From: a virus
Taxonomy: Duplodnaviria; Heunggongvirae; Uroviricota; Caudoviricetes
Strand: one strand, 5' to 3'
DNA: 64,000 bases
IMG/VR virus record: IMGVR_UViG_3300014208_000030
Span: 104,076 to 168,075 of that record
Numbering within the stretch: the first letter of the stretch is position 1; each line of letters starts with the position of its first letter. Made by a program: the position numbers and the translations under genes. Of this stretch, positions 25,536-54,506 are shown piece after piece. The notes beneath the pieces were generated by a model. That model searched no databases. It saw only the letters and a program-made list of their open reading frames with translations, and had not been told where the DNA came from.

Positions 25536-25621
25536 ATATTATGTCCTCTGTATTGTTGTAATCTCTTTAGGTGAAGTCGACATTATACATTATTTCTGGC
25601 TATTGTCAATATTTGCAGAAG

Positions 25622-25629
25622 TATAAATA
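25622..25629 (+). promoter_or_regulatory. T4-type late promoter TATAAATA
   Basis: gTATAAATAaaggatacacaaccaatataaaggactactaaATG; identical cassette upstream of 31766 and 37271. Confidence 0.75.
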
Positions 25630-25661
25630 AAGGATACACAACCAATATAAAGGACTACTAA

Positions 25662-27593
25662 ATGCCTATTTCTGCCCACGAACGCCACCTGATGAACGGT
25701 GGCTTGTTGCGCCCTGTCTCAAAGTCACTTGCAGACACCACAATTCACCCATTCGCAACCCTTGCCGCAAGACCGACTGCGTCGGAATTCGGAGTTGGTC
25801 ATGCGAGTATTGTTACAGCAACATACCGCATCAACTGTTCATCGGATGGCGTTAGCTGGGATAGTCACGGATCGAGTAGCTCAATTGCGGACAGGCCGAG
25901 TGCTGCTGCGCTTGGGAAAGGGAGTTGGCAGGATGGAGCGAATATTTATAGCTGCGATGGAGTAGGCTATGCATTAGTTGGTAGTGCAGACCCATCTACT
26001 TTTACAAATATTTTAGTAAATGGTGATAGCACATCAGTTAGGAATATTTTGGACGGTTGGTGGAAAACATCGGGCGGAGGAACGATAGCGATCAATGTCA
26101 CGGTAGGTGATATTCAGCAGTCATGTCACGCTGATTTAACGGCTGGCTCAGTAGGATATTTAAACTTCCGTGCATCAGACCAGAGCTACCAGTGGAGAGC
26201 GCCAGGCGATGACAGTTACGGCCCGTGGGTTGCTACTGTGCCAAACACGCGAGTAAGACTGGAGTCATCAAGCGCCAATAAATCGTGTTTTGTGGGTGTT
26301 ACTGGACTATCTGCTATTGACGTAAATGCACAAGCCATCACGATATCTTCAGGTTCTCCAACTATAACTGTGTCGGACGATGGCCTTGAGTCTATTCTAA
26401 GATATTTTAGGATTGACTTATCAAATGTCGCGAAACACGGAGTGGGCGGAACAACTATAGCGACTATGCTGCAATCACTGCCCTATATCAACTTAAATTA
26501 CGGCGGAGCTGGGCTAGATATAACCAGTTTAGGAATAAATGATGGCGCCACGACAACCGACGAAGCAACCACAAAATTAGCGCAGTATGCAGCATATATC
26601 GATTCAAGACTTGCGAATGGCAGGACTATTATATGGGTTGGAGTTAAGGGAAGAACTACGGGGGCAGGTGCTGCATATAACGCTTGGGGGACTACATTCC
26701 TAACTTCCTTCAATCTTGAATTTCAGCGTAGATTACATGGATTATTGCTAGAATACGCAAGAAACTTTCCGAGCACATTTAAGTATGTAAATACACTAAG
26801 TGATTTCATGGATGCGGGGTATTTGGATTTCAGACCTAAGGTATCAACCGATAACTGGGTTACTACAGATACTGTACACCAATCAGCACTCGGAGGACAG
26901 TTGATTGCTATTAATGCAGTAACCACAGCTAAGGACATCATTAAATACGGCGATGATTACTCCGATAATAGTAATAATTTACTCGGCACAATGGGTATTT
27001 ATACTGGCACAACAGCCGTAGTATCGGCGGCATCGGGACAGTCGGGTGTATTGCCAACTGGGATAATCGCCAATCCTGGCGGCTCGATTGATGGGACATG
27101 CGTTTATAGTGTAGTGCAAAGATCAACTAATATTGCCAGTTATGCGGCTATAACCGGGAAGAAACAGTTCAATGCTATAAAAATGGTTATGTCAAATGGA
27201 GTTGCAGCGCCACTTGGATTCTATGGGATAAAGGGAAGCACTGCATCGTGGACAGGTACGCTTATTGGGTTAGCAGCTGGAGATTTAATCAGGGTTGGTG
27301 TTTATCTCGACTCACTAAGCGCTGAAGTTCATGGTATTGCATTTAAGTGGAATTATGTTGGTGTAACTCCGCAAAATAATATATATACTCCAGACCAAGG
27401 TGGACAGACTAACTCACCCGGTATGCTGGCCTTCTCTGATACAAGATTATATGTTAGTCCATGGTTTGCTGTTTCTGCTAATTTTCTAGCAACAAATAGT
27501 TTTTTACCTGATTTTAGAGTATATCCAAAAGCTGGTGCAACTGGGGTAGAGTTAAATATTGGGCCTATGTTTATTGAAAAATACCCCGTATAA
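25662..27593 (+). CDS. receptor-binding / tail-fibre-like protein, paralog 1 (643 aa)
   Basis: N-terminal ~90 aa (MPISAHERHLMNGGLLRPVSKSLADTTIHPF...GKGSWQ) near-identical to two other genes; divergent Gly/Thr/Ser-rich C-terminus; late promoter. Confidence 0.65.
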   Translation: MPISAHERHLMNGGLLRPVSKSLADTTIHPFATLAARPTASEFGVGHASIVTATYRINCSSDGVSWDSHGSSSSIADRPSAAALGKGSWQDGANIYSCDGVGYALVGSADPSTFTNILVNGDSTSVRNILDGWWKTSGGGTIAINVTVGDIQQSCHADLTAGSVGYLNFRASDQSYQWRAPGDDSYGPWVATVPNTRVRLESSSANKSCFVGVTGLSAIDVNAQAITISSGSPTITVSDDGLESILRYFRIDLSNVAKHGVGGTTIATMLQSLPYINLNYGGAGLDITSLGINDGATTTDEATTKLAQYAAYIDSRLANGRTIIWVGVKGRTTGAGAAYNAWGTTFLTSFNLEFQRRLHGLLLEYARNFPSTFKYVNTLSDFMDAGYLDFRPKVSTDNWVTTDTVHQSALGGQLIAINAVTTAKDIIKYGDDYSDNSNNLLGTMGIYTGTTAVVSAASGQSGVLPTGIIANPGGSIDGTCVYSVVQRSTNIASYAAITGKKQFNAIKMVMSNGVAAPLGFYGIKGSTASWTGTLIGLAAGDLIRVGVYLDSLSAEVHGIAFKWNYVGVTPQNNIYTPDQGGQTNSPGMLAFSDTRLYVSPWFAVSANFLATNSFLPDFRVYPKAGATGVELNIGPMFIEKYPV

Positions 27594-27724: not shown

Positions 27725-30160
27725 CTATTTTAAATTGTAGCTTATGACTTTATAATCGAATTGATCTTTTGCATAATATCCTACTCGTTTCTCGAAATGG
27801 TCTAGGGTATGATTTTTGTAAGATTTATACGACATATCGTCCGCCAAATCGAACAGGTTACAAACATATTTCCCATTCCCCTTTCGCAGACCACGCCCAA
27901 CTGACTGCAAAACTTTTATCTTGCTCTTGTATGGTGATGCAAAAATAATATTGTCAATCCGCTTGATCGAAACACCGGTAGAAAATGTGCCATATGATGC
28001 AACTATCGTACAGTCATCTGTAGTCTCGGCAATCTGCCTAACAGCATCTCTGGACTCAACATCAACCTTGCCATGTATAAAGTGACAGTTACCAGCATCT
28101 TTTAGCAAATTGTAGATAGGCAGACCCTGCTTCCCGACGAATGTGAACAGTATTAGCGTATTACCTTTCAGAGAGTTCGCCAATCCGGCAATGAAGGCAT
28201 TTCTGCGCTCACTGGTGCATAGATAATCCATTTCTTGAGCATACGTAGCCTTGCTCCGAGCCATTGCCTTAGCAACTTCCTCGCGGTGCTTAATCAGGAT
28301 GCAGCTGATCTTCAGATTAGCGGCCTGACCGTTATCAATCAGTTCTCTGGTAGTTATAGTCTTAAATGCTTTCCCAAACAAACCCTCGATGACCAACCGG
28401 TTACATTTGCTGTCCTGCAAACTTCCGGTGAACCCGACTCGATAGGCGACATTGTGAGCCCTCTCCATAATATCGGTAATTGACTTAGATTTTGCAGTGT
28501 GGCAATTGCCTACTACAACAACAAAACCTTTTCTACGGACAATAATATTCCCAGACGGCACAGTAACGCAATGCACATTACCAGAATATTGGACGCGCTC
28601 TTTTTGCATCCCTTGCGTCCCTATGATATTGGTCTTCCGGATATATAATCTATGCACATCGGAAAACTTATCGCTCCTGCTATCTATCTGAATAGTTTTT
28701 CTTGCTATATATCCCGCTAGTACAGCAACGGTCTGATAAAAATCAACCGAGCACTCGGATGTGTTCGAATAGTAGTATCGATTCTCGCTGGATATGCTGC
28801 CATCCCAAATAACCATATACTCTATGATTTCTTTCGCCGTTTCGCTAGATAGTGTTGATACGTCAAAAAATGTAGATACATCCTTTGTCGCATAATCAAT
28901 ATTATATATACTAAACCGACGTTTTTCTTTGGTTTTCCCGTATGCTGGTATACTCTTCAGCTCATTATATGAAAACCCACCCTCAGCCATCAGTGCTAGG
29001 AACTCAGTTATTTTTCTTTCTTTAGAAAACTTAAACTGTAATACTTGTTTTCCGCCATCCCGACCAACAATACATCCGTCTGCTTGGAGTGCAATCATAA
29101 GCTTTTGTTTTGGTGTAAGTGGTCCAGAATCGCCTACGGCAAGCCCAGCCCCATATAGATTACATAAGGCATTAAAATTAACTTCTGCCGCAGTTACTTT
29201 TTTGTCAACATAGCCGTGCTTCTGTGTTCGCCTAATTAGCATATCATGGTTTGGAGTTACTAAAAGGTCTATTCTACTATCACTACTTATATGTACTAGC
29301 TCACCATCATAGTGCTTAGTGATATATCTAAGTGGCTTAACGAATGATATATTACCACAATCGTACTGAGCAACATCCGCAACCTCGCTCAATTCATCGA
29401 ATCGAACAAATCCTCTGTTTGTCAATATTTCTGTATCTGGAGAGAAGCACTCATCCTGAACAATCATATCGAACTGCTCATAATATGAGATTGGCATTTT
29501 TGCCATCGATTGGTAGGTAGTGAAGGTCAGTTGCTTATCGGTCTGCTTCTCCTGCCCAGAGTAGATCATGTGGCTTCTACCCTCAACATCCCATCCGCTT
29601 ACGCTAGAATAGTCAATGAAATCGGACTTCATTTGCGCCACCAGACCGACGGTTGGGAATATCAATAATACACGCTTCACTTCACCGATAGCTATCAGAT
29701 ATCTGATTGTGCTAAAGATAATCAGAGATTTCCCCGACGAAGTGGGGCTCTCGATGGTCGCCCTACGGTTGTCTAGAATATGTTTTATGGCGTCGACTTG
29801 GTAGTCATATACTGTGATAGGGTTTCCGGCAGAGTGCAACCGAAGAACATCGGCAATGTATTTTTCGATGATGGCTCTATCGTTGTCCACGACAGGATGT
29901 ACATCCTCATCATACTCTACTGTATAGCCAGCCTGCGCAGCGAATTCGAGAATGTGATAGAACAGGCCAGCATAAATGTTGCGAGTACCGGCGTTGAGGA
30001 GCCTGATTGTGCCATTCCACAACCCATGCTTATATGCCGGTGTAAACTTTGCACCTTCAACATCAAACGTGAAATGCGCAGCCATTTCGACAATAACACA
30101 TTTCTCGGCATCAATGTGCACATATACTTCGTTAAGTTTTCGAATTCGGATATCAGCCAT
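27725..30160 (-). CDS. uvsW: UvsW-like DExH (SF2) DNA helicase interrupted by an in-frame intein
   Basis: Walker A SPTSSGKS; extein blocks recalled to match T4 UvsW (KCNRLVIEGLFGKAFKTITTRELIDNGQAANLKI, TIVASYGTFSTGVSIKRI, VLQSVGRGLRK); motif II reads IVQDE|C...N|CHTAKS. Confidence 0.9.
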   Translation of the reverse strand: MADIRIRKLNEVYVHIDAEKCVIVEMAAHFTFDVEGAKFTPAYKHGLWNGTIRLLNAGTRNIYAGLFYHILEFAAQAGYTVEYDEDVHPVVDNDRAIIEKYIADVLRLHSAGNPITVYDYQVDAIKHILDNRRATIESPTSSGKSLIIFSTIRYLIAIGEVKRVLLIFPTVGLVAQMKSDFIDYSSVSGWDVEGRSHMIYSGQEKQTDKQLTFTTYQSMAKMPISYYEQFDMIVQDECFSPDTEILTNRGFVRFDELSEVADVAQYDCGNISFVKPLRYITKHYDGELVHISSDSRIDLLVTPNHDMLIRRTQKHGYVDKKVTAAEVNFNALCNLYGAGLAVGDSGPLTPKQKLMIALQADGCIVGRDGGKQVLQFKFSKERKITEFLALMAEGGFSYNELKSIPAYGKTKEKRRFSIYNIDYATKDVSTFFDVSTLSSETAKEIIEYMVIWDGSISSENRYYYSNTSECSVDFYQTVAVLAGYIARKTIQIDSRSDKFSDVHRLYIRKTNIIGTQGMQKERVQYSGNVHCVTVPSGNIIVRRKGFVVVVGNCHTAKSKSITDIMERAHNVAYRVGFTGSLQDSKCNRLVIEGLFGKAFKTITTRELIDNGQAANLKISCILIKHREEVAKAMARSKATYAQEMDYLCTSERRNAFIAGLANSLKGNTLILFTFVGKQGLPIYNLLKDAGNCHFIHGKVDVESRDAVRQIAETTDDCTIVASYGTFSTGVSIKRIDNIIFASPYKSKIKVLQSVGRGLRKGNGKYVCNLFDLADDMSYKSYKNHTLDHFEKRVGYYAKDQFDYKVISYNLK
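28505..29449 (-). mobile_element. intein (~315 aa) with LAGLIDADG-like homing endonuclease domain, inserted in helicase motif II (DE^CH)
   Basis: starts CFSPDTEILTNRGFV, ends ...GFVVVVGN followed by extein Cys; internal LYGAGLAVGDSG LAGLIDADG-like motif; extein junction rebuilds DECH. Confidence 0.8.
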
Positions 30161-31695: not shown

Positions 31696-31725
31696 TAGAT
31701 GGGTTAATTGTAATTTTCTTTAAAG

Positions 31726-31733
31726 TATAAATA
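31726..31733 (+). promoter_or_regulatory. late promoter TATAAATA (RBP cassette copy 2)
   Basis: same 40-nt promoter-leader as at 25622. Confidence 0.75.
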
Positions 31734-31765
31734 AAGGATACACAACCCATATAAAGGACTAATAA

Positions 31766-33324
31766 ATGCCTATTTCTGCCCACGAACGCCACCTGATGAA
31801 CGGTGGCCTGTTGCGCCCTGTCTCAAAGTCACTTGCAGACACCACAATTCACCCATTCGCAACCCTTGCCGCAAGACCGACTGCGTCGGAATTCGGAGTT
31901 GGTCATGCGAGTATTGTTACTGCAACATACCGCATCAACTGTTCATCAGATGGCGTTAGCTGGGATAGTCACGGATCGAGTGATTCAATTGCAGATAGGC
32001 CAAGTGCTGCTGCGCTTGGGAAAGGGAGTTGGCAGGTAGGTGATTTATTATACCATTCCGCTGGCGCATCATGGAAAACAGAAAAACTAGCAAAAAGAAC
32101 AAATGTATTAACCCGTTGCCCTACTGGAACTACACAAAACTACACTGGTAAAGGTGGTTTCACATTTAATATTCAGGCTGAGTTGGCTGGCGTTCCAATG
32201 GCGGTGCGTATTGCCATTCCAAATCACACAGCGGGAACACCAACTATTGCTGGTAGTTTTGGTTTTGATACTGCTATGGGTGATATTAATTCTGTGCAAT
32301 CGCGGGGGGCAATGTAGCTACATGGTATCCACTGACATTTGGTGGTGCTGCTTCTGGGACACATGCTGCAAGAGTTAGTGCTACCGAACCATCGTGGTTA
32401 TGGTCTGATTTAATTCCTTGCTCTGCATTACCTCGCGTGGACAGTGAAAGTGGGGCAATTATTCATACTAGGCTTATACAAGGCACAGCTGGTGGTGATG
32501 CCACTTCGTGGTCTGCAATGTGGGCACCTCACGCACTTGTTGCAGATATTATTAAGCATCAATGGAGGGGATGTGCTTCTGCTGCTGCTGTTGACTATGC
32601 AACAACTAACCAAGCAGCTTTTACTACAGGCTCAAACTCTGGAACGGCTAATACAACACACTTACCCTGTATGATTCAATATGTTTCGCTCACACAAGGG
32701 CAGACATTATTAACAATTGGTGATTCCATAACTGCTGGGTTAAATACAGGTACGGGTGGAGCCGCAGCAAATGGTTATGGGTGGACGGCTAAGTTACGTG
32801 ATCTATTATCTACTCCAGAAGTTCCAGTTGAATTATGTAATCTTGGGTATTCTGGGGCAACTATGGCTATGATAACTGGAATATACACTAGAAATGCTAG
32901 TGAACTAAAGAATTGCTTATTACTACATACTATGTATACACCAAATAGTATAGATGTAGTATTGGCCAAAAAAGAGCTAGTAAAATCATTAGCCATTATG
33001 GATAGTATGGGTCATGTTCCTATTTACTGGACAGGGTTGCCTAGAAATGCAACTGTAGCTGGTGGAGGTTTAGGTGGTACTAGTGCAGCTAATCTAGGCG
33101 CGTATGAGGCACAACGAGTAGAATATAATATAGAAATTTTAAGTGCTAATGAAAATGTACTGGATTTATCATCGGCTGTATCTGGCTCAGTTGTTGCTAG
33201 TGGTACAGCGGCAGGCCAAATGGAATATGCGATAGGAAATAGTGATGATGGATTACATCCTAATAATACAGCGCATGATGATATTGCCAATTACGCATAC
33301 CCGTACTTACTTAACAGAATATAA
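31766..33324 (+). CDS. receptor-binding/tail-fibre paralog 2 with C-terminal SGNH/GDSL esterase domain, split by a frameshift in a G6 tract (parts 31766-32317 and 32290-33324)
   Basis: N-terminal 183 aa identical family domain ends at TAG 32315; frame +1 is open from 32290 and encodes LLTIGDSITAGL (GDSL motif) to 33324; adding one G at 32304-32309 (cgcGGGGGGc) fuses the two. Confidence 0.6.
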
Positions 33325-33387
33325 TTCGAATAGTGGCGGCGTCATTAGGCCAAGGGCATTACCAGCAACAGTATTATCATTTGCCAC

Positions 33388-33416
33388 TTGACAAACAACC
33401 ACCAAGGTGGTATACT
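33388..33416 (+). promoter_or_regulatory. strong sigma70 promoter TTGACA-17-TATACT
   Basis: perfect -35, 17-nt spacer, TATACT; points into a 730-bp region with no ORF. Confidence 0.6.
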
Positions 33417-33599
33417 AGTCAATTAATCGCATCAGCTGACAGGAAGTTAGCGAAAGCGTCTGGAGAATTCACTCCGGCAAAGAGCGCACCTCTATCATAG
33501 CCTAGTATGGCAGTTAGAGTCACCAACGATGAAGCTATATGCCTCTGTAGTGTTGAGCATGCACCCCGTGGAATCTTTTGATTCATTATTGAGTTCGGC

Positions 33600-34147
33600 A
33601 ATAATGTTAATTCCCAAATAACCGTTCATGATGCACCCTAGAGGTGCAGCCAGTTGCAGTTAGTGATTCCGTTTTGCAACTGGTGCCGCTATGATACCAG
33701 CAAACAGATGTAAAGGCAACCGCATAGCCATGCCTACCTCATTATATGGGGTTTTCTCGGAATATCTTACGACAGTCTTTTCTGTAATAAGATTTTGTCT
33801 GCAAGGCAAAATCTTTCTCTTGTCTTTTTAAAATCTTTTATAAAAGCTTTTTTAAAAAATATCTTTATGGCCTTCGGCGGTGCTACGCACCAGTACCTTA
33901 ATGGCTTTTATAAAAATAGCTTTTCTTATTTAAACAACATTGAACCGCGCGAAGCGCCGCCGTAGGCGTTTCTATAATAACTTTTTATAAAAGATTTTAT
34001 ATTAACTGCTATAACAGTGGTTATAGAAAGCCTCCGGCGGTGCTGCGCACCAGTCATAATATGTTGTTATTTAAAAATAATACATGAACCACACGAAGCG
34101 AAGCGACGTAGGAGCTTCCTATAACCACTGCTATAAAAGCTTTTATA
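33600..34147 (+). ncRNA. candidate structured non-coding RNA region: two tandem ~130-nt repeat units (33870-33990, 34000-34140) plus upstream hairpins
   Basis: units share cggcggtgct[ag]cgcaccagt...tgaacc..gaagcg..cgtagg...ataaaag.tttt; internal inverted repeats ccttcggcgg/ccgccgtagg, ggtgc/gcacc; 12-bp imperfect IR gcagccagttgca/tgcaactggtgc at 33640-33690; no ORF >60 aa on +. Confidence 0.35.
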
Positions 34148-34155
34148 TATAAATA
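34148..34155 (+). promoter_or_regulatory. late promoter TATAAATA
   Basis: tatTATAAATAaaggatacagaaccaatataaagggctataaaATG. Confidence 0.7.
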
Positions 34156-34187
34156 AAGGATACAGAACCAATATAAAGGGCTATAAA

Positions 34188-34565
34188 ATGTCACAAAAAG
34201 AGTATCCAGTATCAAGCACTTCTCTAAGCGGTGGGACTATACCGGCTGTTGTTATTATGCAGCTAGATGGTGACGGAAATCCTCAGCCAGCCGCTATTGG
34301 GGCATCGGTCACATCAACGCCATATACATTAATAGCAACAACACTAATAATAGCTGTAGGTACAAAAAACCCGCCATTCACGGTGACATTAAAATCGGCA
34401 GATGCAACTAGAAAGATTGAATTTTCTACGGATGGCGGCACTGAATATTTTATACCGGCAATCGATATAACAAGCGCAACCATGCTAATCACTTATGCAT
34501 CGGCACCAATTACCCATATAAAAGTAACTGGTCTTATTAATGATACCCTGATAATAGTTGGTTAA
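34188..34565 (+). CDS. hypothetical late/structural protein (125 aa, Thr/Ala/Ile-rich)
   Basis: ORF behind late promoter. Confidence 0.5.
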   Translation: MSQKEYPVSSTSLSGGTIPAVVIMQLDGDGNPQPAAIGASVTSTPYTLIATTLIIAVGTKNPPFTVTLKSADATRKIEFSTDGGTEYFIPAIDITSATMLITYASAPITHIKVTGLINDTLIIVG

Positions 34566-35373: not shown

Positions 35374-35389
35374 TATGATGCGCGTAATG

Positions 35390-35397
35390 TATAAATA
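35390..35397 (+). promoter_or_regulatory. late promoter TATAAATA
   Basis: gTATAAATAaaggatatacaacc...ATG. Confidence 0.7.
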
Positions 35398-35425
35398 AAG
35401 GATATACAACCATTCGGGAATACCC

Positions 35426-37216: not shown

Positions 37217-37230
37217 GAATTTTCTAGAAG

Positions 37231-37238
37231 TATAAATA
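37231..37238 (+). promoter_or_regulatory. late promoter TATAAATA (RBP cassette copy 3)
   Basis: same promoter-leader as 25622 and 31726. Confidence 0.75.
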
Positions 37239-37270
37239 AAGGATACACAACCCATATAAAGGACTACTAA

Positions 37271-38653
37271 ATGCCTATTTCTGCACATGAACGCCACCTG
37301 ATGAACGGTGGCCTGTTGCGCCCTGTCTCAAAGACACTGACCGACACCACAATTCATCCCTTCGCATCCCTTGCCGCTAGACCGACTGCGTCGGAATTCG
37401 GAATTGGGCATGCGAGTATTGTTACTGCAACATACAGAATCAATTGTTCATCGGATGGTGTTAGCTGGGATAGTCACGGGTCGAGTGACAGCATTGCAGA
37501 TAGGCCGAGTGCGGCTGCATTGGGGAAAGGGAGTTGGCAGGTTGGCAATTCGGTTGAATATAGTGACGGAGTTGCTTATGTAAATCCAGCAAACACAAAG
37601 CAACCGACCTTAGTATGGGACGCTGCTAAAGCTAAAGCATCTTCTGGGTTTGGAAATGCTAAAGTTTTATTCCTTGGCGATAGCATTACGGCAGGCGCAT
37701 TTGCAACCAACGGAACGAGTTACGCTAATGCAAAAATAAACGCAACGCCAGCACACATAGCAGCAAAAATGGCAGCAAATGGGTTTGCAACATCAAAAAG
37801 CAGCTGGTTTGGCATGCAAAATCAAGGTACTGTTGCTGCCTTAGCTACATACGACCCACGTTTATCTTTCGGGGCAGATTGGGCTTCTATTAATGGCACA
37901 AAGAGCCTTGGCGGAGATCTTGTAGTAAATGCGGCAAGTGCGTCTACAACGGCTCTTTCGTTTACTCCCACCGAAGCATTCGACACTATCGACATATATT
38001 ATGTAAGAAACACCTCGTACGGTAGTTTTACAGTCGATATTGGAGCAGGAGTAATAGCAACTCAGTCAGCAACAGGATCAACAGGAGTACTTGTTTTAAG
38101 TCTTACTGTTGCTAGTGGACTGCATACTGTTAATATTTCTCACGTTGCCGGGACTGGATCTGCAGCAATAGTTGGGATGAGTTGCTATACAAATAACTCA
38201 GAAGTGCAAGTTATAAATGCTGGCTTGCCTGGCGCACTCGCTACCACACTTTTCACTGGTACTGGATTTTCTCCGGAAGCGGCTATTAATACATTAAACC
38301 CTGATTTAACAGTTATAAATCTTACTACTAATGACGCTCAAGCTTTGATAGCTACAGCAACTGCAATGGCAAGCTTGCAAGTAATAATTGATAGATGCTT
38401 ATTATCAGGAGATGTTGTACTGTGCGTCCCTAATCCAGTCAGTTCGAACGTAGCGACAGCAGAAGAATATTATACTGCTATTCGCTTGCTTGGTTCAGAA
38501 AACTCATTAAATGTTTTTGATTACTCTACTGGTCTTGGCGTTGACTGGGCCGTGGTTAACGCCAATGGACTGATGAAAGATGCTTTACATCCAAAACAAG
38601 CAGGTTATAAGGCAATTGCTGATATAGCTGGGAGCTATGGTGTTTTATATTAA
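37271..38653 (+). CDS. receptor-binding/tail-fibre paralog 3 with SGNH/GDSL esterase domain (460 aa)
   Basis: conserved N-terminal 90 aa; KVLFLGDSITAGAF GDSL motif; C-terminal ...DALHP(K) block as in paralog 2. Confidence 0.7.
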   Translation: MPISAHERHLMNGGLLRPVSKTLTDTTIHPFASLAARPTASEFGIGHASIVTATYRINCSSDGVSWDSHGSSDSIADRPSAAALGKGSWQVGNSVEYSDGVAYVNPANTKQPTLVWDAAKAKASSGFGNAKVLFLGDSITAGAFATNGTSYANAKINATPAHIAAKMAANGFATSKSSWFGMQNQGTVAALATYDPRLSFGADWASINGTKSLGGDLVVNAASASTTALSFTPTEAFDTIDIYYVRNTSYGSFTVDIGAGVIATQSATGSTGVLVLSLTVASGLHTVNISHVAGTGSAAIVGMSCYTNNSEVQVINAGLPGALATTLFTGTGFSPEAAINTLNPDLTVINLTTNDAQALIATATAMASLQVIIDRCLLSGDVVLCVPNPVSSNVATAEEYYTAIRLLGSENSLNVFDYSTGLGVDWAVVNANGLMKDALHPKQAGYKAIADIAGSYGVLY

Positions 38654-42000: not shown

Positions 42001-42501
42001 ATGAATAATGAATACACATTTTTTTGGCGAGGCGTGTTCTCGCAGTGGAGCCCATCAAGATTCGTCTTTGAGGCGAAAGAATTTAACTGCGCCGAACAGG
42101 CAATGATGTACCATAAGGCAGTACTCTTTGGTGACTTCAATACTGCTGGCAAAATCATGGCAACACCATCCCCAAAAGACCAACAGGCACTTGGCCGCGA
42201 AGTAGCCAATTTCTGCCAAGCTACTTGGAATGCATTTGCCAGACAGCTAGTTGTCGACATCAGCGTTGCCAAATTTTCACAGAACAAAGGCTTGTGGGAA
42301 ATACTGGATGCTACCGGTAACACCACCTTGGTAGAAGCATCTCCAAAAGACAAAATCTGGGGAATTGGGTTGGCAGAAGAAGTTGCGAAGAAAACTCCTG
42401 CAGATCAGTGGGTCGGTACTAACTGGCTTGGTCTGGCGTTGACGGAAGCTAGAGAGATCATTCGCGAAAACAATTCGCAACAAAGCGATGGTATGAGCTA
42501 A
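42001..42501 (+). CDS. NADAR-domain (YbiA/DUF1768) protein
   Basis: FFWRGVFSQWSPS.F.......F...EQAMMYHKA.LFGD......I......P...K.LGREV..F....W.......V.......KF.QN..LWE.L..TG...LVEASP.D.IWGIGL matches the NADAR signature. Confidence 0.7.
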   Translation: MNNEYTFFWRGVFSQWSPSRFVFEAKEFNCAEQAMMYHKAVLFGDFNTAGKIMATPSPKDQQALGREVANFCQATWNAFARQLVVDISVAKFSQNKGLWEILDATGNTTLVEASPKDKIWGIGLAEEVAKKTPADQWVGTNWLGLALTEAREIIRENNSQQSDGMS

Positions 42502-43439
42502 TGGCGGATATCCATTACGGACGAAAACGTAAGGGCATGGTGAGAGAGCTTAATAGCAAGCTCTCTGCTTGGATCGATACTATCGATGATGAGGATGTCG
42601 TAGCTGCTGTTAAGCGTGATACTATCGTTACCGGTGGTTCCATCGCATCAATGTTGCTTGGCGAACCTATCAACGATTTTGATATCTATTTTCGCACTAA
42701 AGAGACAACATTGTTAGTTGCTCATTATTATGTCCGAAAATTCAATGATGCAATAGCGGAGAAGGCTGTGGTAATGCATAAGCCTTATGTTACCGAAAAA
42801 CCTATTATCAACTGCAAGGGTGTCGAGGAAGATCGGGTACTGATCTATATCAAGTCCGCTGGTGTTGCTGCCGAAGAGCAAAATACATACCAGTATTTTG
42901 AGATGCAGCCAAAGGAAATGGCAGAGGAATTTGCCAAATCGTTGGAAGAAAATAAAGCATCTGGTAAGGCACCATATCGCCCAGTGTTTCTGTCGGCTAA
43001 TGCAATAACATTGAGCAATGATGTTCAGCTAATTATCCGATTCTTTGGCGAGCCAGATAAGATTCATGATAACTTTGACTTCATGCATGCAATGTCCTAT
43101 TACGATTACGCTGCGCGAAACTTAGTGTTGCCAGCATCTGCATTAGAATGTTTGCTATCGCGCACTCTGGTATATGCTGGGTCACTATATCCAATGTGCT
43201 CAATATTCCGAATGAGGAAGTTTCTCGACCGAGGGTGGCGAATTAGTGCTGGTGAAATATTGAAGATCATGTGGCAAATCTCTGAACTTGATTTAAAAGA
43301 TCAAGCTGTTCTCCATGAACAGCTCACCGGTGTCGACGCAGCATACATGCACGAATTGCTCGATGCACTGAAGGATGTTGATGCAGATAAAATAAACTCT
43401 ACCTACGTGGCAGAGATAATTGACCGTATATTTAATTGA
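42501..43439 (+). CDS. Pol-beta superfamily nucleotidyltransferase-domain protein (312 aa)
   Basis: TGGSIASMLLGEPINDFDIYF = [GS]-x10-D-x-D NTase motif; no further assignment possible by eye. Confidence 0.5.
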   Translation: MADIHYGRKRKGMVRELNSKLSAWIDTIDDEDVVAAVKRDTIVTGGSIASMLLGEPINDFDIYFRTKETTLLVAHYYVRKFNDAIAEKAVVMHKPYVTEKPIINCKGVEEDRVLIYIKSAGVAAEEQNTYQYFEMQPKEMAEEFAKSLEENKASGKAPYRPVFLSANAITLSNDVQLIIRFFGEPDKIHDNFDFMHAMSYYDYAARNLVLPASALECLLSRTLVYAGSLYPMCSIFRMRKFLDRGWRISAGEILKIMWQISELDLKDQAVLHEQLTGVDAAYMHELLDALKDVDADKINSTYVAEIIDRIFN

Positions 43440-43446
43440 GGGGAAT

Positions 43447-43620
43447 ATGAAGATTTATTTCAAGTTTATTGGTCTGCTGTTGTTTTTGTTCGTCGATTGC
43501 GGCCTACTTATGCCATATCTATTCTCTCAGGAATCTGATATGGCGGTGATGCTTGGGGTGGTAGTTGCTATAGTCAACCCAGTAATTGTTTATTTGTATA
43601 TTAAATGGAGTCTTAAGTGA
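43447..43620 (+). CDS. small two-TM membrane protein (57 aa; start moved to MKIYFKF)
   Basis: SD gagggg before ATG 43447; overlaps SPFH gene start. Confidence 0.4.
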   Translation: MKIYFKFIGLLLFLFVDCGLLMPYLFSQESDMAVMLGVVVAIVNPVIVYLYIKWSLK

Positions 43621-44468
43621 AAAAAATATTATTAGTGATTATGGTAACGTTTCTGGCAGCATGCTCTTATGTAGAACCAGGATACGTCGGCATTAAAGTA
43701 AACAAATTGGGTGGCGACAAGGGCGTCAATTCTCAAGAGTTGGGCGTAGGCAGATATTGGATTGGTATGAACGAAGAGCTGTACACATTCCCAACATTTT
43801 CACAGAGTCAGATGTGGACTAAGGCTAAGACAGACGGCTCACCCAATGACGATTCATTCACATTTCAGACGAGAGAAGGCTTAAGCGTTAATGCTGATCT
43901 TGGTATCACATATGCAATTGATCCATCTAAGGTAACCGTTATCTTCCAGAAATATCGGAAAGGTATCGATGAAATTACCCATGTATACTTACGCAATATG
44001 GTTCGGGATGCTATTGTTACCGAGGCATCCAGCAGACCGATTGAGAGTGTGTATGGTGCCGGTAAAGCTGAGCTGATCGAATCAGTCCAGCGCCGAGTTG
44101 TCGCCGAAACACAATCTATCGGAATCATCATTGAGAAGATTTATCTCGTGGGTGATCTTAGACTTCCCGATGTAGTTACTGACGCTATCAATGCTAAGAT
44201 TGGCGCAACCCAGAAAGCAGCCCAGCGCGAAAACGAGGTTGCTCAATCTAGAGCCGAGGCAGAAAAGAAAATTGCAGAAGCCAAAGGTGAGGCAGACTCT
44301 AAACTCTTAGTGGCCGAAGCAGAAGCCAAAGCGATTAAGATCAAGGGTGATGCATTAAGCCAAAATCCTAAACTTGTAGAGCTCAGTGCTGTCGAAAAGT
44401 GGAATGGTGTATTACCAACATATATGATGGGGAACTCAACTCCTTTCGTAAATATCAAGCAGCAGTAA
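43617..44468 (+). CDS. SPFH/band-7 (stomatin/prohibitin-like) domain lipoprotein (GTG start)
   Basis: signal + lipobox LAACS; SPFH core YVGIKVNKLGG...; C-terminal Ala/Glu/Lys coiled coil. Confidence 0.65.
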   Translation: MKKILLVIMVTFLAACSYVEPGYVGIKVNKLGGDKGVNSQELGVGRYWIGMNEELYTFPTFSQSQMWTKAKTDGSPNDDSFTFQTREGLSVNADLGITYAIDPSKVTVIFQKYRKGIDEITHVYLRNMVRDAIVTEASSRPIESVYGAGKAELIESVQRRVVAETQSIGIIIEKIYLVGDLRLPDVVTDAINAKIGATQKAAQRENEVAQSRAEAEKKIAEAKGEADSKLLVAEAEAKAIKIKGDALSQNPKLVELSAVEKWNGVLPTYMMGNSTPFVNIKQQ

Positions 44469-50606: not shown

Positions 50607-50680
50607 GCGGGTATAGCAAAACGGTTATGCAACTGGCTTCCACCCAGTTCACGGGAGTTCGACCCTCCCTACCCGCTCCA
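50607..50680 (+). tRNA. tRNA-Gly (anticodon TCC)
   Basis: hand-folded cloverleaf: acceptor gcgggta/tacccgc, anticodon stem actgg/ccagt loop cTTCCAc, T-arm gggag-ttcgacc-ctccc, 3' CCA encoded. Confidence 0.8.
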
Positions 50681-50702
50681 AATAACATAGGGAAGCATAA
50701 TA

Positions 50703-50936
50703 ATGGCAGTAGAAGTGAGAGTATTTGAACCTGATCCGGCACACATCTGCATTAGGAATGCTGGGAAGTGGTCACTGAGTATGAATCCAAATATGTTTGG
50801 TCGCGTAACTCATATTAGATATTTGAATGAGTTTGAGTGTGACCTCATCAATGGAGCAATAAAAGCCGCGCAGCGTGCAATGGATATAGCATCTGGAGTA
50901 CCTTCTGAAGCTGATCCTAACCGGATAGATAATTAA
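50703..50936 (+). CDS. hypothetical small protein between tRNA genes (77 aa)
   Basis: ORF only. Confidence 0.3.
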   Translation: MAVEVRVFEPDPAHICIRNAGKWSLSMNPNMFGRVTHIRYLNEFECDLINGAIKAAQRAMDIASGVPSEADPNRIDN

Positions 50937-50945
50937 AAAGTTTTT

Positions 50946-51021
50946 GCGCCAGTAGCTCAATGGTAGAGCGTTCCCCTCATAAGGGATTGGTTTTTGGTTC
51001 GAATCCAAACTCGGCGCACCA
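50946..51021 (+). tRNA. tRNA-Met/Ile2-like (anticodon CAT), acceptor stem with one bulged C
   Basis: D-arm gctc-aatggta-gagc, anticodon loop cuCAUaa, T-arm tttgg-ttcgaat-ccaaa, CCA encoded; acceptor gcgccag pairs with ct(c)ggcgc only if one C is bulged. Confidence 0.55.
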
Positions 51022-51027
51022 AATAAT

Positions 51028-51101
51028 AAGTCATTAGCTCAACGATAGAGCGGCTAGGTGCACTAGTAGATGGTGGGTTTAACTCCCATCATGGCTTGCC
51101 A
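51028..51101 (+). tRNA. tRNA-like element (anticodon arm unresolved)
   Basis: acceptor aagtcat/atggctt + g + CCA, D-arm gctc-aacgata-gagc, T-arm-like gtggg-tttaact-cccat; central region ctaggtgcactag is palindromic and gives no canonical 7-nt loop. Confidence 0.35.
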
Positions 51102-51426
51102 AATTAAGACTAAGTAGAAGCCTTTCCCTACGCACTAAGGAGAGGCAACAAATAATACGATTAGCTTGTCAGACTTAGAACTGTATATTCAACTCTCGAA
51201 CATGGTTGCTTCTAGTCGTATTTTTTGTTAGTGAATGCGTAGGCTGATACGCTGAGATTTGTCTCTCGTCGCAATCCATTTAATTGTGGCTCTAGCAACA
51301 GACATTAACTGAAATGATAAGCATGGGATCAGTACATGCCACCAACTTCAAATACCGTAAGAGGATAGTATTGTGTCTAAATTTAAAATAAGAGGACGGT
51401 GCAATTTTCATTAGTATATTTAACTA

Positions 51427-51960
51427 ATGGAGGTAGCAATGTTAATCGTAACACAAAGAAGCTTCACAACAAAGCACGATCAGGTTATTGGGTATTTTCA
51501 GGACATTCGTGCCATCTACGACCACTTTAGTGGTTTGTTTGGCAAATATGGTTTAGAGAACAGATTCTCCCATAACCAATTTGAGGTCGTAGTAACCGGT
51601 AGATACTGGTTATCTTGGCGAGAAGATATTACCGGCACCGAGCATGCAATGGTTATTACTAACCGGCAGGGTATCCGGTATAGCAAAGAGTTTGTTGCTG
51701 GGATATTTGCAAAGTACCGTAAAACGAAGTTCCAGTGGGGCTGGATACGTGGTACGAAAAGAAATTACCGGTGCTGCTATCGTAGTATAAGAACAACCCA
51801 AGAAATAAGACTTTCAGTGGGTGTTCTGAAAGAAGAAGGTGAACCAGTTTGGCGAACATCTAGAAATTATCATAACTTACCCAACAAATGGGATGAGATA
51901 CAGCATTTGGATGTTTGCAACCGGAACTGGAAGCGGTTTAGAAAAACACAATATAAATAG
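51427..51960 (+). CDS. hypothetical protein (177 aa)
   Basis: ORF; SD ggagg. Confidence 0.45.
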   Translation: MEVAMLIVTQRSFTTKHDQVIGYFQDIRAIYDHFSGLFGKYGLENRFSHNQFEVVVTGRYWLSWREDITGTEHAMVITNRQGIRYSKEFVAGIFAKYRKTKFQWGWIRGTKRNYRCCYRSIRTTQEIRLSVGVLKEEGEPVWRTSRNYHNLPNKWDEIQHLDVCNRNWKRFRKTQYK

Positions 51961-51979
51961 TATATAATGAGGCAGTGAA

Positions 51980-52168
51980 ATGAAAACCCTTTTCGTATGG
52001 ATGAAGTATTCTTGGCAAATCGTGGGACAATCCCTCGCAACTAAGAAGCATCGCAGACCAATAGTAAATGAGGCAGGATTCGTGGCACCGATTATCGTAC
52101 CACTTGGGTATATTGGTGTTATTTTGCAGATAGTTGTTGCGGCATATGTATTAAAAGTTATTTTTTGA
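51980..52168 (+). CDS. hypothetical small membrane protein (62 aa)
   Basis: hydrophobic C-terminus. Confidence 0.35.
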   Translation: MKTLFVWMKYSWQIVGQSLATKKHRRPIVNEAGFVAPIIVPLGYIGVILQIVVAAYVLKVIF

Positions 52169-52177
52169 AAATAAAGC

Positions 52178-52205
52178 TTGACAAGATGTAAAAAGTGTGT
52201 ATAAT
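52178..52205 (+). promoter_or_regulatory. sigma70 promoter aaagcTTGACA-16-TATAAT
   Basis: perfect hexamers upstream of tRNA-Ser. Confidence 0.65.
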
Positions 52206-52283
52206 GGTTGAATAGTTTGCATCACATATAAAGACGGCAATCTTTGTGGTGCGAGCCTTAGTTAAAAAATGATTTGATACGTG

Positions 52284-52291
52284 TATAAATA
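52284..52291 (+). promoter_or_regulatory. late promoter TATAAATA upstream of tRNA-Ser
   Basis: gtgTATAAATAaaag 12 nt before tRNA 5' end. Confidence 0.5.
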
Positions 52292-52302
52292 AAAGTAGAT
52301 AT

Positions 52303-52392
52303 GGAAATGTGGCAGAGCGGTTTATTGCACTGGTCTTGAAAACCAGCGGGGCTTAATCGCCTCCCAGAGTTCGAATCTCTGCGTTTCCGCCA
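52303..52392 (+). tRNA. tRNA-Ser (anticodon TGA), long variable arm
   Basis: acceptor ggaaatg/cgtttcc, anticodon stem ctggt/accag loop cuUGAaa, variable arm, T-arm cagag-ttcgaat-ctctg, CCA; similar in layout to E. coli tRNA-Ser. Confidence 0.8.
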
Positions 52393-52450
52393 TACAATGG
52401 CACGGTTTGTCAGTTTCTAGGTCTAAAAATGAGAAACTTCCACGAATAAT

Positions 52451-52525
52451 TGCGGTGTACATCAGAGGTAGATGAACTGGCTCATAACCAGAAAGACGGG
52501 AGTTCGAGTCTCTCCACCGCTACCA
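52451..52525 (+). tRNA. tRNA (anticodon CAT; Met or Ile-lysidine), U1-U72 mismatch
   Basis: acceptor tgcggtg/caccgct, D-arm catc-agaggta-gatg, anticodon loop cuCAUaa, T-arm gggag-ttcgagt-ctctc, CCA encoded. Confidence 0.6.
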
Positions 52526-52544
52526 GTTTTAAAGTAGTAAATTT

Positions 52545-52621
52545 CGGAATGTATTTCAGTCTGGTAGAATGAACCGTTTGGGGCGGTTCGGTCGTGGGTT
52601 CAAATCCCTCCATTCCGACCA
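52545..52621 (+). tRNA. tRNA-Pro (anticodon TGG)
   Basis: acceptor cggaatg/cattccg perfect, anticodon stem aaccg/cggtt loop uuUGGgg (G37), T-arm gtggg-ttcaaat-ccctc, CCA. Confidence 0.75.
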
Positions 52622-52639
52622 AACAAGGGATATCACGCT

Positions 52640-52735
52640 TAGTTACGTGCCATTTGGCATCGCGCACCCAGATATCCCACCAAATAAGTGTTATCACGCC
52701 TATTGCCAAATGGCTCGCGCACCATGATAGCACGA
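52640..52735. repeat. two ~35-bp direct repeats each containing palindrome tgccatttggca / tgccaaatggc + cgcgcac
   Basis: gatatcacgcttagttacgtgccatttggcatcgcgcaccc vs gttatcacgcctattgccaaatggctcgcgcacc. Confidence 0.6.
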
Positions 52736-53042
52736 TTAACACCAGCCATTACTCTTGGGCGTTATAATTAAGAGAGGTCTTAAGCTCATACCAGAATGAG
52801 AATTGGTACATATCGCATACCAGACAAACATCCGTGTAGAGGAGAGGTTACAAAATCGATATCGTGCCTGTATGTGTACGTAAACATCCCACTGGCTAGC
52901 AAATAGGGCTCTTGGGTGAAGCATACTAGACGGAGAATAAACAGCCTAGATGGGGGAGCGTTGGTGACGTTTAGCCCATCACTCTTATTTTAAAATAAGA
53001 GATAAATATAGCAAAATGAGTGAAGTATTTTCTCCAGCTAAG

Positions 53043-53114
53043 GCACAAGGTGTGCCGCCATCCTGTTAAGATGTGTGAGTTTGGTCCGATTCCAAAAGCT
53101 GGAGAAAATACTTT
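53043..53114 (+). tRNA. tRNA-Asn-like (anticodon GTT) embedded in a 16-bp extended inverted repeat; no CCA
   Basis: acceptor tccagct/agctgga, D-arm ggca-caaggtg-tgcc, anticodon loop cuGUUaa, T-arm tttgg-tccgatt-ccaaa; flanks gaagtattttctccagc / gctggagaaaatactt extend pairing. Confidence 0.5.
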
Positions 53115-53126
53115 ATATACAAAGAG

Positions 53127-54002
53127 TTACGGGTTAATATAATTCTCAACGAGTTTCACTAATTCTGAGTACTCGATACTAGATATTGTTTTCTTTTTAT
53201 TATTTTCTGTGTGCTGCATCAATTCACAATTTAGTGGGTGTGTGATATAAAATGCATCATAGTTATATTTTAGTGCATCATGCACGGATACTCTATGGTC
53301 TCTCGATATCCCATCTGGGTTCCACTTTTGGCCTTTGAAATTATTCGGCGAGAACCACCCGAATTTATCTATTAAGGTCAGATCGAACAGGTCTGGATAG
53401 TGGTACACATTGAATGTAAACTTATATCGTTGCTTTTCTGCTGGTGAATATATGGTAACGCACTTTGTACAGTATTTCGTCGCCCTCCTTTGGGATATGA
53501 TAATGCCACAGTGCTGACATTTGCACATATATAACTTAGAAAATACACCAGATGCGGTTTTGTTAGTTTCTCGGTTTCGTACTGGACTGCGGCGTTGCGC
53601 TACTCGCTTACGTACAGGCTTTGGTAATTTAGCTTTGCGTTCTGGCTTGCTCTTGATTTTGTGTGCAGATTTATGATAGGCCGATACGCTTTTAGATACT
53701 TTATCCTTGTGGGCATCAGTAATAACATAGCCATGTTTTATTCTGTCGGTATTATTAAATGTAGCTGCACATGATGCATTACAAAATTTTCGATTAGAAT
53801 CTAATGGCATATTACAATGAATGCAGTATTTAATATTAGATTGAAATCTAGGAAGCCGATCGACCGATATCTCTTTCTTAGTAATAATACAGCAGCATCT
53901 TAGTTGTGGAAGTTTACCAGCTGATATGCCGTGAATACGAGAATGCCCATTAAGAGAGCGAATTGATGGAAATATTTTACTACAGTGTTCGCATTTGAAC
54001 AT
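53127..54002 (-). CDS. HNH endonuclease with N-terminal C2H2 zinc finger (homing-endonuclease-like) in the tRNA region
   Basis: FKCEHCSKIFPSIRSLNGHSRIH = C2H2; C-terminal GISRDHRVSVHDA...HPLNCELMQHTENNKK = HNH; basic KxK-rich linker. Confidence 0.7.
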   Translation of the reverse strand: MFKCEHCSKIFPSIRSLNGHSRIHGISAGKLPQLRCCCIITKKEISVDRLPRFQSNIKYCIHCNMPLDSNRKFCNASCAATFNNTDRIKHGYVITDAHKDKVSKSVSAYHKSAHKIKSKPERKAKLPKPVRKRVAQRRSPVRNRETNKTASGVFSKLYMCKCQHCGIIISQRRATKYCTKCVTIYSPAEKQRYKFTFNVYHYPDLFDLTLIDKFGWFSPNNFKGQKWNPDGISRDHRVSVHDALKYNYDAFYITHPLNCELMQHTENNKKKTISSIEYSELVKLVENYINP

Positions 54003-54108
54003 TGGATACCCGATATAAATAATATTGTGTAGGACAGTTCAGTTACCCGATACTGAATTGATTAATATTGGTCGTATTAATCTAACTGCATATATTTATA
54101 TAAATATG

Positions 54109-54137
54109 TTGACAATATATCGAATATGGTATATACT
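54109..54137 (+). promoter_or_regulatory. sigma70 promoter TTGACA-17-TATACT (overlapping TATAAATA boxes on both strands at 54095-54106)
   Basis: seen in sequence. Confidence 0.55.
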
Positions 54138-54203
54138 CTTAAAAGTTAACAATATACCGGACAAGCATGCGAAAGCTGCTCAAATCGTTCCGGTTTTTAT
54201 TAT

Positions 54204-54284
54204 TGTCATGTAGCTCAGTGGTAGAGCAGTGGCGTAGTCGCACTACGCTTCCGTACGGTGGGTCAACACCACCCATGACAGCCC
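54204..54284 (+). tRNA. tRNA-like element (perfect acceptor stem tgtcatg/catgaca, canonical D-arm), anticodon arm atypical
   Basis: D-arm gctc-agtggta-gagc; T-arm ggtgg-gtcaaca-ccacc; 29 nt between D- and T-arms form gcgtag-tcgca-ctacgc hairpin; anticodon not assignable by hand. Confidence 0.4.
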
Positions 54285-54300
54285 AATTTAGCGAAATAAC

Positions 54301-54373
54301 AATTGCATGTCGGACGCAAGAACCGTATATTCAATTTTCAAATATGATTGCATCAGTTGTTATTTCGGTAAAT
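54301..54373 (+). ncRNA. candidate stable RNA: 11-bp inverted repeat cgaaataacaa/ttgttatttcg enclosing ~50 nt
   Basis: between two tRNA genes, as for T4 small stable RNAs in its tRNA cluster. Confidence 0.25.
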
Positions 54374-54431
54374 CGCCACGCAAGTGGTCTTACAGATAGT
54401 GGATATCCAAGATGAACCCACTTAAAACAAT

Positions 54432-54506
54432 TCTTGGAATTGCTGGTGAAGCATAAGTGGCGATGCACATGACTTGTAATCATGAGAACGCGGGTCGGAA
54501 CCGCGC
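54432..54506 (+). tRNA. tRNA-Thr (anticodon TGT)
   Basis: acceptor gctggtg/caccagc, D-arm gcat-aagtggcg-atgc, anticodon stem catga/tcatg loop cuUGUaa, T-arm cgcgg-gtcggaa-ccgcg, CCA. Confidence 0.8.

Follow-up and report, generated by a model that had tools for sequence, protein, structure and literature searches.

We describe here a structured RNA gene in a 64,000-nucleotide (nt) stretch of DNA from an uncultured T4-like myovirus (IMG/VR record IMGVR_UViG_3300014208_000030, positions 104,076 to 168,075; hereafter, the window). The element, a core of about 405 nt that we call the type A RNA, lies behind an early promoter of the host sigma70 type and in front of two palindromic units and a late promoter. 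We consider it very likely that this is a genuine structured RNA gene, with its own promoter, no coding potential and compensatory structure on the transcribed strand. With moderate confidence, we further propose that it is a stand-alone, early-expressed RNA which acts in trans as a folded molecule, and that the palindromic units would serve as a module for termination, processing, or insulation in front of the late promoter. Our confidence in any specific function is low. A preliminary description of the window had suggested a structured phage RNA behind a promoter in this region. The RNA itself is supported by the early promoter class and by covariation, but the palindromic units, on which that description was centered, are the least conserved part; the strongly conserved core lies upstream of them, and of this only one hairpin had been noted.

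Related phages were reached by a protein search with the neighboring tail-completion protein gp3, which in the window shares at most ∼40% identity with the gp3 of any isolated phage, the best matches being cyanomyoviruses. Two metagenomic T4-like contigs carry a homologue of window positions 33422-33830: L014 (169.5 kb; gp3 73% identical; nhmmer E = 7e-61) and L021 (1.3 kb; gp3 70% identical; E = 4e-54). Homology to L014 begins at 33422, i.e., at the predicted transcription start, and fades past the first palindromic unit. The RNA is 66 to 72% identical between the phages, a level comparable to that of the gp3 gene (64 to 68%), while the third codon positions of gp3 are only 40 to 44% identical and such neutral sites are near saturation between these phages. 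Eight blocks are identical in all three homologues, the longest being GCAAACAGATGTAAAG. Two further metagenomic contigs of ∼168 kb, L007 (ENA) and L008 (JGI), are 100% identical to the window across the region and thus carry no comparative information.

The fold of the core was derived from a structure-blind MAFFT alignment of the three sequences (window, L014, and L021), followed by RNAalifold. The consensus comprises 98 pairs in 18 helices, and 95.5% of the cells form standard pairs. Compensatory double changes were found in 35 pairs, compared to 13 ± 2.8 in shuffled alignments, none of which (0 of 500) reached 35; when the 3' partners were slid by 1 to 3 columns, only 3 to 6 compensatory pairs were left. 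At least one compensatory pair is present in 12 of the helices. Since sense-versus-antisense comparison of minimum free energy (MFE) was uninformative for the core, we assigned the strand by the count of G-U pairs in the consensus structure. These account for 32 of 292 paired cells, several of them invariant, and the fold is thus specific to the plus strand, the one read by the promoter. Given this covariation, and given an identity that matches the gp3 gene despite the low identity of third codon positions, we conclude that the core is a real structured RNA under purifying selection. The 12-bp imperfect inverted repeat that had been noted at 33640-33690 proved to be helix 14 of this fold. Within GCAAACAGATGTAAAG, a 3-bp helix 15 (33700-33702 / 33709-33711) and the first two pairs of helix 16 are predicted, and the tail of the RNA at 33821-33828 is predicted to pair back with 33480-33486 as helix 4. 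A candidate pseudoknot would join the invariant UUCGGC loop (33593-33598) to the likewise invariant GCCG at 33687-33690.

Coding explanations were rejected. The region had been described as free of open reading frames (ORFs), and indeed no ORF longer than 60 amino acids (aa) is found on either strand of 33325-34187 (863 bp). All three stop codons are present in every frame, no ORF is conserved across the two homologous loci, and indels between the homologues are not multiples of three. The last ∼40 nt (34148-34187), however, do not belong to the element, because they consist of an ordinary late promoter and leader repeated ahead of four other late genes (those at 25662, 31766, 35426, and 37271; promoter/leader copies include 34141-34187 and 35387-35412). 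Public gene calls place a 55-aa ORF opposite the RNA gene (window 33419-33586, minus strand, corresponding to L007 9232-9399). L014 retains it only in part and in L021 it is not conserved, which makes it almost certainly spurious; the case shows how gene callers can set a spurious ORF opposite a real RNA gene. A small RNA that base pairs with phage transcripts was also considered, for which a conserved seed and a complementary target would be expected. No site complementary to GCAAACAGATGTAAAG occurs elsewhere in the window, and none of the conserved blocks has an antisense target in these 64 kb at up to 3 mismatches.

The promoter claimed at 33388 was confirmed. It scores 11/12, making it the top site of a 4-kb scan, and it belongs to a class, TTGACA-N15-19-TAWAMT, that is represented by 10 sites in the window against 0.4 expected (25-fold enrichment) and that also precedes tRNA clusters. 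This class is the host sigma70-type early promoter class of the phage. The homologues in L014 and L021 each have their own TTGACA-16/17-TG-TATACT promoter, likewise scoring 11/12, which lies ∼55 nt farther upstream of the conserved core than in the window. The early promoter is conserved in function, not in position, at both homologous loci. The late-promoter motif TATAAATA is of the T4-type late class; it occurs 20 times in the window against 5.4 expected, typically ∼40 nt ahead of start codons. In L014, such a TATAAATA motif (∼9935-9950, minus strand) stands immediately upstream of the early -35 box of the RNA and in the same direction, so that the RNA may also be transcribed late there; the window has no such motif at this place.

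The type A RNA appears to represent a previously undescribed family, outside the families of Rfam 15 and known from three uncultured T4-like phages. A comparison of the region with Rfam, a check proposed at the outset for the two units, gave no credible family match. Among 4227 models, including 6S, tmRNA, RNase P, group I/II introns, GOLLD, ROOL, HEARO, and the cyanophage motifs, only tRNAs passed in the window; at E <= 10, the region gave eight matches of 12 to 22 bits, compared to gathering scores of 42 to 140, all of them noise. Nothing was found in L021 or L015 at E <= 10, nor in L014, L016, L018, and L023 at E <= 0.1. A blastn search of the region against 50,697 phage records returned no match, and a search with the 7.7-kb flank matched only uvsW of cyanophages. 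Exact and degenerate DNA patterns of the units and RNA blocks gave only chance matches in viral, metagenome, and genome contig collections; those dismissed lay in a high-GC actinophage, in coding regions, and at the start of a protein-coding gene in metagenome-assembled genomes of Rhizobiaceae. The scanned collections evidently do not contain this phage clade. Homologues of the 125-aa protein encoded downstream led to unrelated podoviruses and compact contigs, none with the RNA. A covariance model of the central domain (R1) recovered no copy beyond the three known ones when run on 224 kb of related loci, nhmmer profiles of the RNA found no further ones, and no description of such an RNA was found in the literature.

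The core ends in a conserved 3' hairpin. In the window, this hairpin is followed by a T-rich tract (33814-33829) and resembles a terminator; a terminator scan matched it (12 pairs, 3 G-C, T-rich tail) but gave no match in L014 and L021, where the hairpin is kept and the T-tract is absent. Beyond it lie the two palindromic units, previously described as tandem repeats of ∼130 nt. These are real, nonrandom, and confined to the locus, but they are palindromes, with a start-to-start spacing of 144 to 160 nt. Each consists of a GC-rich arm and its inverted copy around an AT-rich center of ∼50 nt, with AT-rich inverted repeats outside. In unit 1, the GC arm reads GCCTTCGGCGGTGCTACGCAC and its inverted copy GCCTACGGCGGCGCTTCGCGC, the 3' arm being an inverted copy of the 5' arm. 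The arms contain mini-palindromes with 3-nt centers, including GCGAAGC. Unit 2 matches unit 1 with a mean column identity of 78% (alignment A1), rising to 88 to 92% in the conserved arm blocks. That the units share sequence blocks also held up: CGGCGGTGCTRCGCACCAGT (at 33875 and 34035) and TGAACCNCNCGAAGCG (at 33941 and 34085) are confined to these positions within the window, where chance would give at most 0.13 matches, and all four copies of TATAAAAGCTTTTATA-like blocks are found here, compared to 0.1 expected. The units are the two longest inverted repeats of the window, unit 2 being the longest. Folded together, they reach z = -6.1. Unit 1 has an 18-bp AU-rich stem, and unit 2 has a 12-bp stem above further paired segments. 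The stretch has a GC content of 33%, compared to 42% for the genome, and contains ∼3 copies of an 11- to 12-nt AT-rich repeat (TRF) which is not conserved between the window and L014.

As the main element, the role first given to them, the units did not hold up, for they are the least conserved part of the cassette. The window has two and L014 one, with a gap at the position of unit 2; in L021, where none could be confidently recognized, only a loosely similar stretch (GC hairpin, AT-rich segment, GC hairpin) is present. The single L014 unit is homologous to unit 1, its GC arms are conserved, and it is followed by a GCGCC-ATC-GGCGC hairpin. Conservation of the units in related phages had been named as a test, and the result is mixed: one unit with GC arms is found in L014, but covariation is weak (1 to 2 covarying pairs across the two window units and that of L014) and the L021 counterpart is vague. 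Beyond the GC arms of the units, identity drops to ∼45%. The units thus look accessory to the core. They are real, tied to the RNA cassette, and fast evolving, and the evidence does not support their action as sense-strand RNA. A dispersed palindromic repeat, such as a miniature inverted-repeat transposable element (MITE), was rejected as their origin: inverted arms are present, but every copy belongs to this cassette, and none was seen at other places in the window or in the retrieved relatives.

The cassette follows the SGNH gene in the window, 1.7 kb from the point at which late transcription diverges, and lies directly beside gp3, at the divergence point, in L014 and L021. The type A RNA is absent from more distant relatives (L017/L018, with gp3 63% identical; L037, 61%; and L038/L039, 57%). 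Their DNA directly upstream of gp3 instead encodes another structured RNA, type B, which is divergent from gp3 and also has a consensus sigma70 promoter in front of it (e.g., TTGACAAAGTTTTTTGCTGTGATATAAT in L037). Type B folds with z = -7.9 in L017, and 20 of its 53 predicted pairs show compensatory changes; after the core comes a long AT-rich hairpin, where covariation was seen in 7 of 23 pairs. Type B has no Rfam match, and homology between types A and B could not be shown. As an unrelated structured RNA fills the same slot beside gp3 in these relatives, it appears to be the position that is conserved rather than a particular sequence. The coordinates of all features are collected in Table 1.

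Table 1. Features of the type A RNA locus and its surroundings (window coordinates, except for the type B RNA)
Feature	Position	Strand	Basis or remark
Early, host sigma70-type promoter, TTGACA-17-TATACT with TG extended -10	33388..33416	+	Predicted start near 33423
Core structured non-coding RNA, type A, ~405 nt, 18 predicted helices	33423..33829	+	Homology, covariation, no ORF
Helix 14, 11-bp hairpin	33649..33684 (33649-33659 / 33674-33684)	+	6/11 pairs compensatory, 97% of cells paired
Invariant block GCAAACAGATGTAAAG	33700..33715	+	Identical in three homologues; mostly unpaired in predicted fold
Conserved 3' hairpin, 10 bp	33791..33813	+	9/10 pairs invariant in sequence
Palindromic unit 1	33829..34000	.	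AT-rich outer arms 33829-33859 / 33969-33999; GC-rich inverted arms 33870-33890 / 33947-33967; AT-rich center ~55 nt
Palindromic unit 2, tandem duplicate of unit 1	33998..34147	.	Arms 33998-34031 / 34114-34147; GC core 34030-34050, 34085-34110
T4-type late promoter TATAAATA and conserved leader	34148..34187	+	Serves downstream gene at 34188
Late gene upstream of element, C-terminal part of SGNH/GDSL-esterase, tail-fiber-like protein	32437..33324	+	Pfam Lipase_GDSL 3e-6, PHROG tail fiber; context only
Late gene downstream of element, 125 aa, no assigned function	34188..34565	+	Context only
Type B RNA	L017 ~8090-7790 (L018 same sequence), L037 ~362-40, L038 ~165-1 / L039	-	Same slot as type A

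We propose that, on entry of the phage DNA, host RNA polymerase would transcribe the type A RNA from its near-consensus sigma70-type promoter, and that the transcript would fold into ∼18 helices around a few invariant, mostly single-stranded blocks. Its end would be at or just past the conserved 3' hairpin. The RNA most likely works in trans, binding protein as a scaffold or decoy, or possibly serving as a catalyst; action in trans as a stand-alone molecule is suggested by the selection on 18 helices, by the mostly single-stranded nature of the invariant blocks, by the independence of the RNA from the identity of its neighbors, and by the separate late promoter of the downstream gene. It resembles neither a base-pairing antisense RNA nor a cis-acting leader, and nothing points to a role in packaging. 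The one or two GC-clamped AT-rich palindromic units may form long hairpins after the core. These could terminate transcripts that run past the core, or expose them to RNase III-type cleavage, and would thereby keep the early RNA gene insulated from the late TATAAATA promoter.

Several observations weigh against this proposal. The comparison rests on three sequences from one narrow clade, which do not fix the exact ends or the tertiary architecture, and the MFE of the window core alone is only modestly low (z = -1.9). Because the T-tract is found only in the window, termination at the 3' hairpin is not conserved, and transcription may continue into the units. In all three units, the antisense strand folds 5 to 8 kcal/mol better than the sense strand, which is unexpected for purely sense-strand RNA action and thus counts against hairpins that work only in the sense RNA. 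Nothing points to a partner protein or target. Finally, a replication origin would agree at least as well as an insulator with the AT-rich palindromes, with the location of the cassette where transcription diverges in L014 and L021, and with the proximity of uvsW and uvsY.

Such an origin is the main rival explanation, which we regard as credible, though unlikely. In a replication-origin cassette, the early promoter would produce a structured pre-primer RNA, similar in this respect to ColE1 RNA II or the origin transcripts of T4, that continues through the weak 3' hairpin into the AT-rich, GC-clamped palindromes. The palindromes would serve as a DNA unwinding element; the resulting persistent R-loop would prime the leading strand, and UvsW would later remove it. 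T4 offers a precedent: oriF and oriG consist of a promoter and an A+T-rich unwinding element, oriE, oriF, and oriG lie at points of transcription divergence, and several T4 origins are mechanistically undefined (PMC3016281). The order of elements here fits, with an early-type promoter, the RNA, and then the GC-poor stretch with its AT-rich repeats and the two longest palindromes of the window. So does the location, with uvsW within 3.5 kb and uvsY within 8 kb, and with the cassette exactly at the late-transcription divergence beside gp3 in L014 and L021; in T4, the distance from gene 3 to oriE is 3.4 kb, and oriE comes immediately after the 3-2-4 / 53-5 divergence (T4 record NC_000866). The missing canonical terminator at the 3' hairpin of L014 and L021, the absence of sense-strand bias in the units, as expected of a DNA-level element, and the combination of an unrelated structured RNA with long AT-rich hairpins in the same slot of distant relatives point in the same direction.

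The T4 model is nevertheless matched imperfectly. R-loop origins of T4 need no particular transcript sequence or fold, whereas 400 nt of RNA structure are strongly selected here. The architecture of oriF and oriG, a MotA promoter with an adjacent A+T-rich element within ∼100 bp, was not found: the canonical -35 box TTGACA marks the promoter as early type rather than MotA-box, and the AT-rich DNA begins ∼400 nt from it instead of directly downstream. Of the features of an oriE-type origin, the early promoter is present, but the AT-rich repeats found in the window are not conserved in L014. Moreover, the window cassette is off the divergence point, a terminator-like hairpin and T-tract separate its RNA from the AT-rich DNA, the orientation is opposite to that of the T4 oriE primer, and GC skew merely tracks gene orientation.

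A broader and speculative version, for which we see little probability as yet, takes the slot itself as the unit of function. At the late divergence point beside gp3, unrelated large structured RNAs with AT-rich hairpins would replace one another (type A here; type B in L017, L037, and L038), either as structure-dependent initiators of phage DNA replication, counterparts of ColE1 RNA II, or as a new class of early ribonucleoprotein or ribozyme that takes over a host process. In either form, this would be a new mechanism in a very well-studied phage group.

We regard as doubtful the version of the preliminary description, in which one long RNA of ∼730 nt carries the two tandem hairpin units as functional modules, e.g., as repeated protein-binding decoy sites, with the upstream 400 nt as a leader. 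The strong folding of the units, the conservation between the window and L014 of their GC arms and of an internal GUGC-NNN-GCAC mini-hairpin, and one compensatory change from G-C to A-U would agree with it. The covariation of the type B AT-rich hairpin indicates that downstream hairpins can belong to such transcripts, and no canonical terminator precedes the units in L014 and L021. Conservation and covariation are, however, concentrated in the upstream 400 nt and not in the units, the number of which varies between phages; a terminator-like hairpin precedes them in the window; and the antisense strand is the better folded one.

It is very improbable that the RNA is a cis-acting leader (riboswitch or attenuator) of the downstream late genes. 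It does lie upstream of late structural genes and in their orientation in the window and in L014, and it ends in a terminator-like hairpin in the window. The downstream genes differ, however, encoding a 125-aa protein in the window and a 666-aa SASA-domain protein in L014; each is preceded by a TATAAATA late promoter of its own, located after the RNA and ahead of the start codon; the promoter of the RNA is early and the genes are late; and 150 to 320 nt of palindromes separate the RNA from the gene. That the locus is debris without a function of its own, a decayed protein gene or a mobile-element remnant with MITE-like palindromes, is hardly credible and is largely refuted for the core: the tail-fiber neighborhood is rearranged and the units resemble terminal inverted repeats around AT-rich DNA, but the core matches the gp3 gene in its conservation, at a distance where third-codon sites are near saturation, it has 35 compensatory pairs and no conserved reading frame, and no further copies of the unit motifs are found in the window or in 20 kb of L014.

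The phage encodes UvsW, UvsY, gp3, an RNA ligase, and a tRNA cluster. The SGNH/GDSL tail-fiber-like gene upstream of the element (31766-33324, plus strand) is split into ORFs of 183 and 295 aa in the window and in L007. In L008 (4794-6353), it is a single 519-aa gene in which 31766-32317 is fused with 32437-33324; the sole difference between L007 and L008 in this gene is one 1-nt indel, which is either a frameshift or an assembly error. The promoter, leader, and first ∼100 codons of three late genes (starts at 25662, 31766, and 37271) are 90 to 96% identical (∼25619-25930, ∼31712-32037, and ∼37218-37542), which suggests that they encode paralogous fiber or spike proteins with a common N-terminal anchor domain and differing C-terminal domains. 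Homologues of the 125-aa protein encoded downstream of the element occur in unrelated phages without the RNA.

The UvsW helicase of the window (27725-30160, minus strand) has 811 aa, compared to 494 to 502 aa in relatives. An insertion of ∼300 aa separates its DEAD/ResIII part, which extends to residue 238, from its C-terminal helicase part, which starts at ∼538, and PHROG matches to intein-bearing ribonucleotide reductase and thymidylate synthase families suggest that the insertion is an intein; the UvsW homologue of L023 (848 aa) contains Hom_end_hint and LAGLIDADG_3 domains. On the 3' side of uvsY, at ∼42001-44468 (plus strand; L007 17814-20281), are genes with NADAR, Gad2 (PF26128), and Band_7 domains (Pfam), which may form an anti-defense or accessory cluster. 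The tRNA cluster (50607-54513) holds three consensus early promoters (50313, 52178, and 54109); tRNA-Asn (53032-53105) and tRNA-Ala (54203-54285) were called by ARAGORN only, and a tRNA at 54442-54513 was called by Rfam only. In the intergenic, AT-rich early region, inverted repeats of 27 to 30 nt are present at 5809-5914 and 6656-6771. Their arms contain (C)TTGACAAA, i.e., facing -35-like sequences, and they resemble the promoter/stem-loop cassettes of T4-type phages.

Large multi-helix non-coding RNAs (ncRNAs) with strong covariation are rare in bacteria and phages, and earlier examples have repeatedly led to new biochemistry; in T4-like phages, ncRNAs other than tRNAs are few and poorly understood. 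The present element is compact and well delimited, consisting of promoter, 405-nt core, palindromes, and late promoter. Synthetic constructs would allow a direct test of whether its product primes replication at an origin or acts in trans, although none of these phages is in culture.

The locus shares features with several known systems. PeSL cassettes of T4-type phages, reportedly described by Arbiol et al. in 2010, are said to combine an early sigma70-type promoter with stem-loops in plastic regions, where they can sit at sites of gene shuffling, and to be short and present in many copies per genome. Here, too, such a promoter and stem-loop sequences lie in a plastic region of a T4-type genome, but the palindromic units are confined to a single locus, and what the promoter drives is a conserved RNA of 400 nt. 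Early transcripts of phages such as T7 have intrinsic terminators and RNase III processing hairpins between transcription units. The palindromic units are likewise long imperfect hairpins between transcription units, but they are far longer than terminators and lack a canonical U-tract. The RNA II pre-primer of ColE1, several hundred nt long, is transcribed from a sigma70 promoter towards a downstream site, and its specific fold is functionally required. The likeness to the type A RNA, with its comparable length and a sigma70 promoter directed towards a downstream site, is purely conceptual, and neither an antisense partner like RNA I nor a Rom-like gene nor a G-rich/C-rich hybrid anchor was identified here.

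With the T4 origins oriE and oriF/oriG (PMC3016281; NC_000866), the locus has in common a host-type or early promoter, an untranslated transcript, AT-rich DNA with short repeats, and a position near the gene 3 side of the late-transcription divergence, with uvsW and uvsY in the neighborhood. T4 origin transcripts, in contrast, are not known to need a conserved fold, and the unwinding element of oriF/oriG directly follows the promoter. The oriE primer is antisense to gene 5, whereas the type A RNA is non-coding, intergenic, and co-oriented with late genes, and there is no sequence similarity to the T4 origins. Compared to GOLLD and ROOL (Rfam; cryo-EM study PMC12286853), to whose covariance models it shows no similarity in sequence or structure even at E <= 10, the type A RNA is smaller (∼405 nt), has tail genes instead of tRNA genes as neighbors, and is known in three uncultured T4-like phages only. 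What it shares with them is that it is a stand-alone, multi-helix phage ncRNA of several hundred nt which has no known target and was recognized by its covariation.

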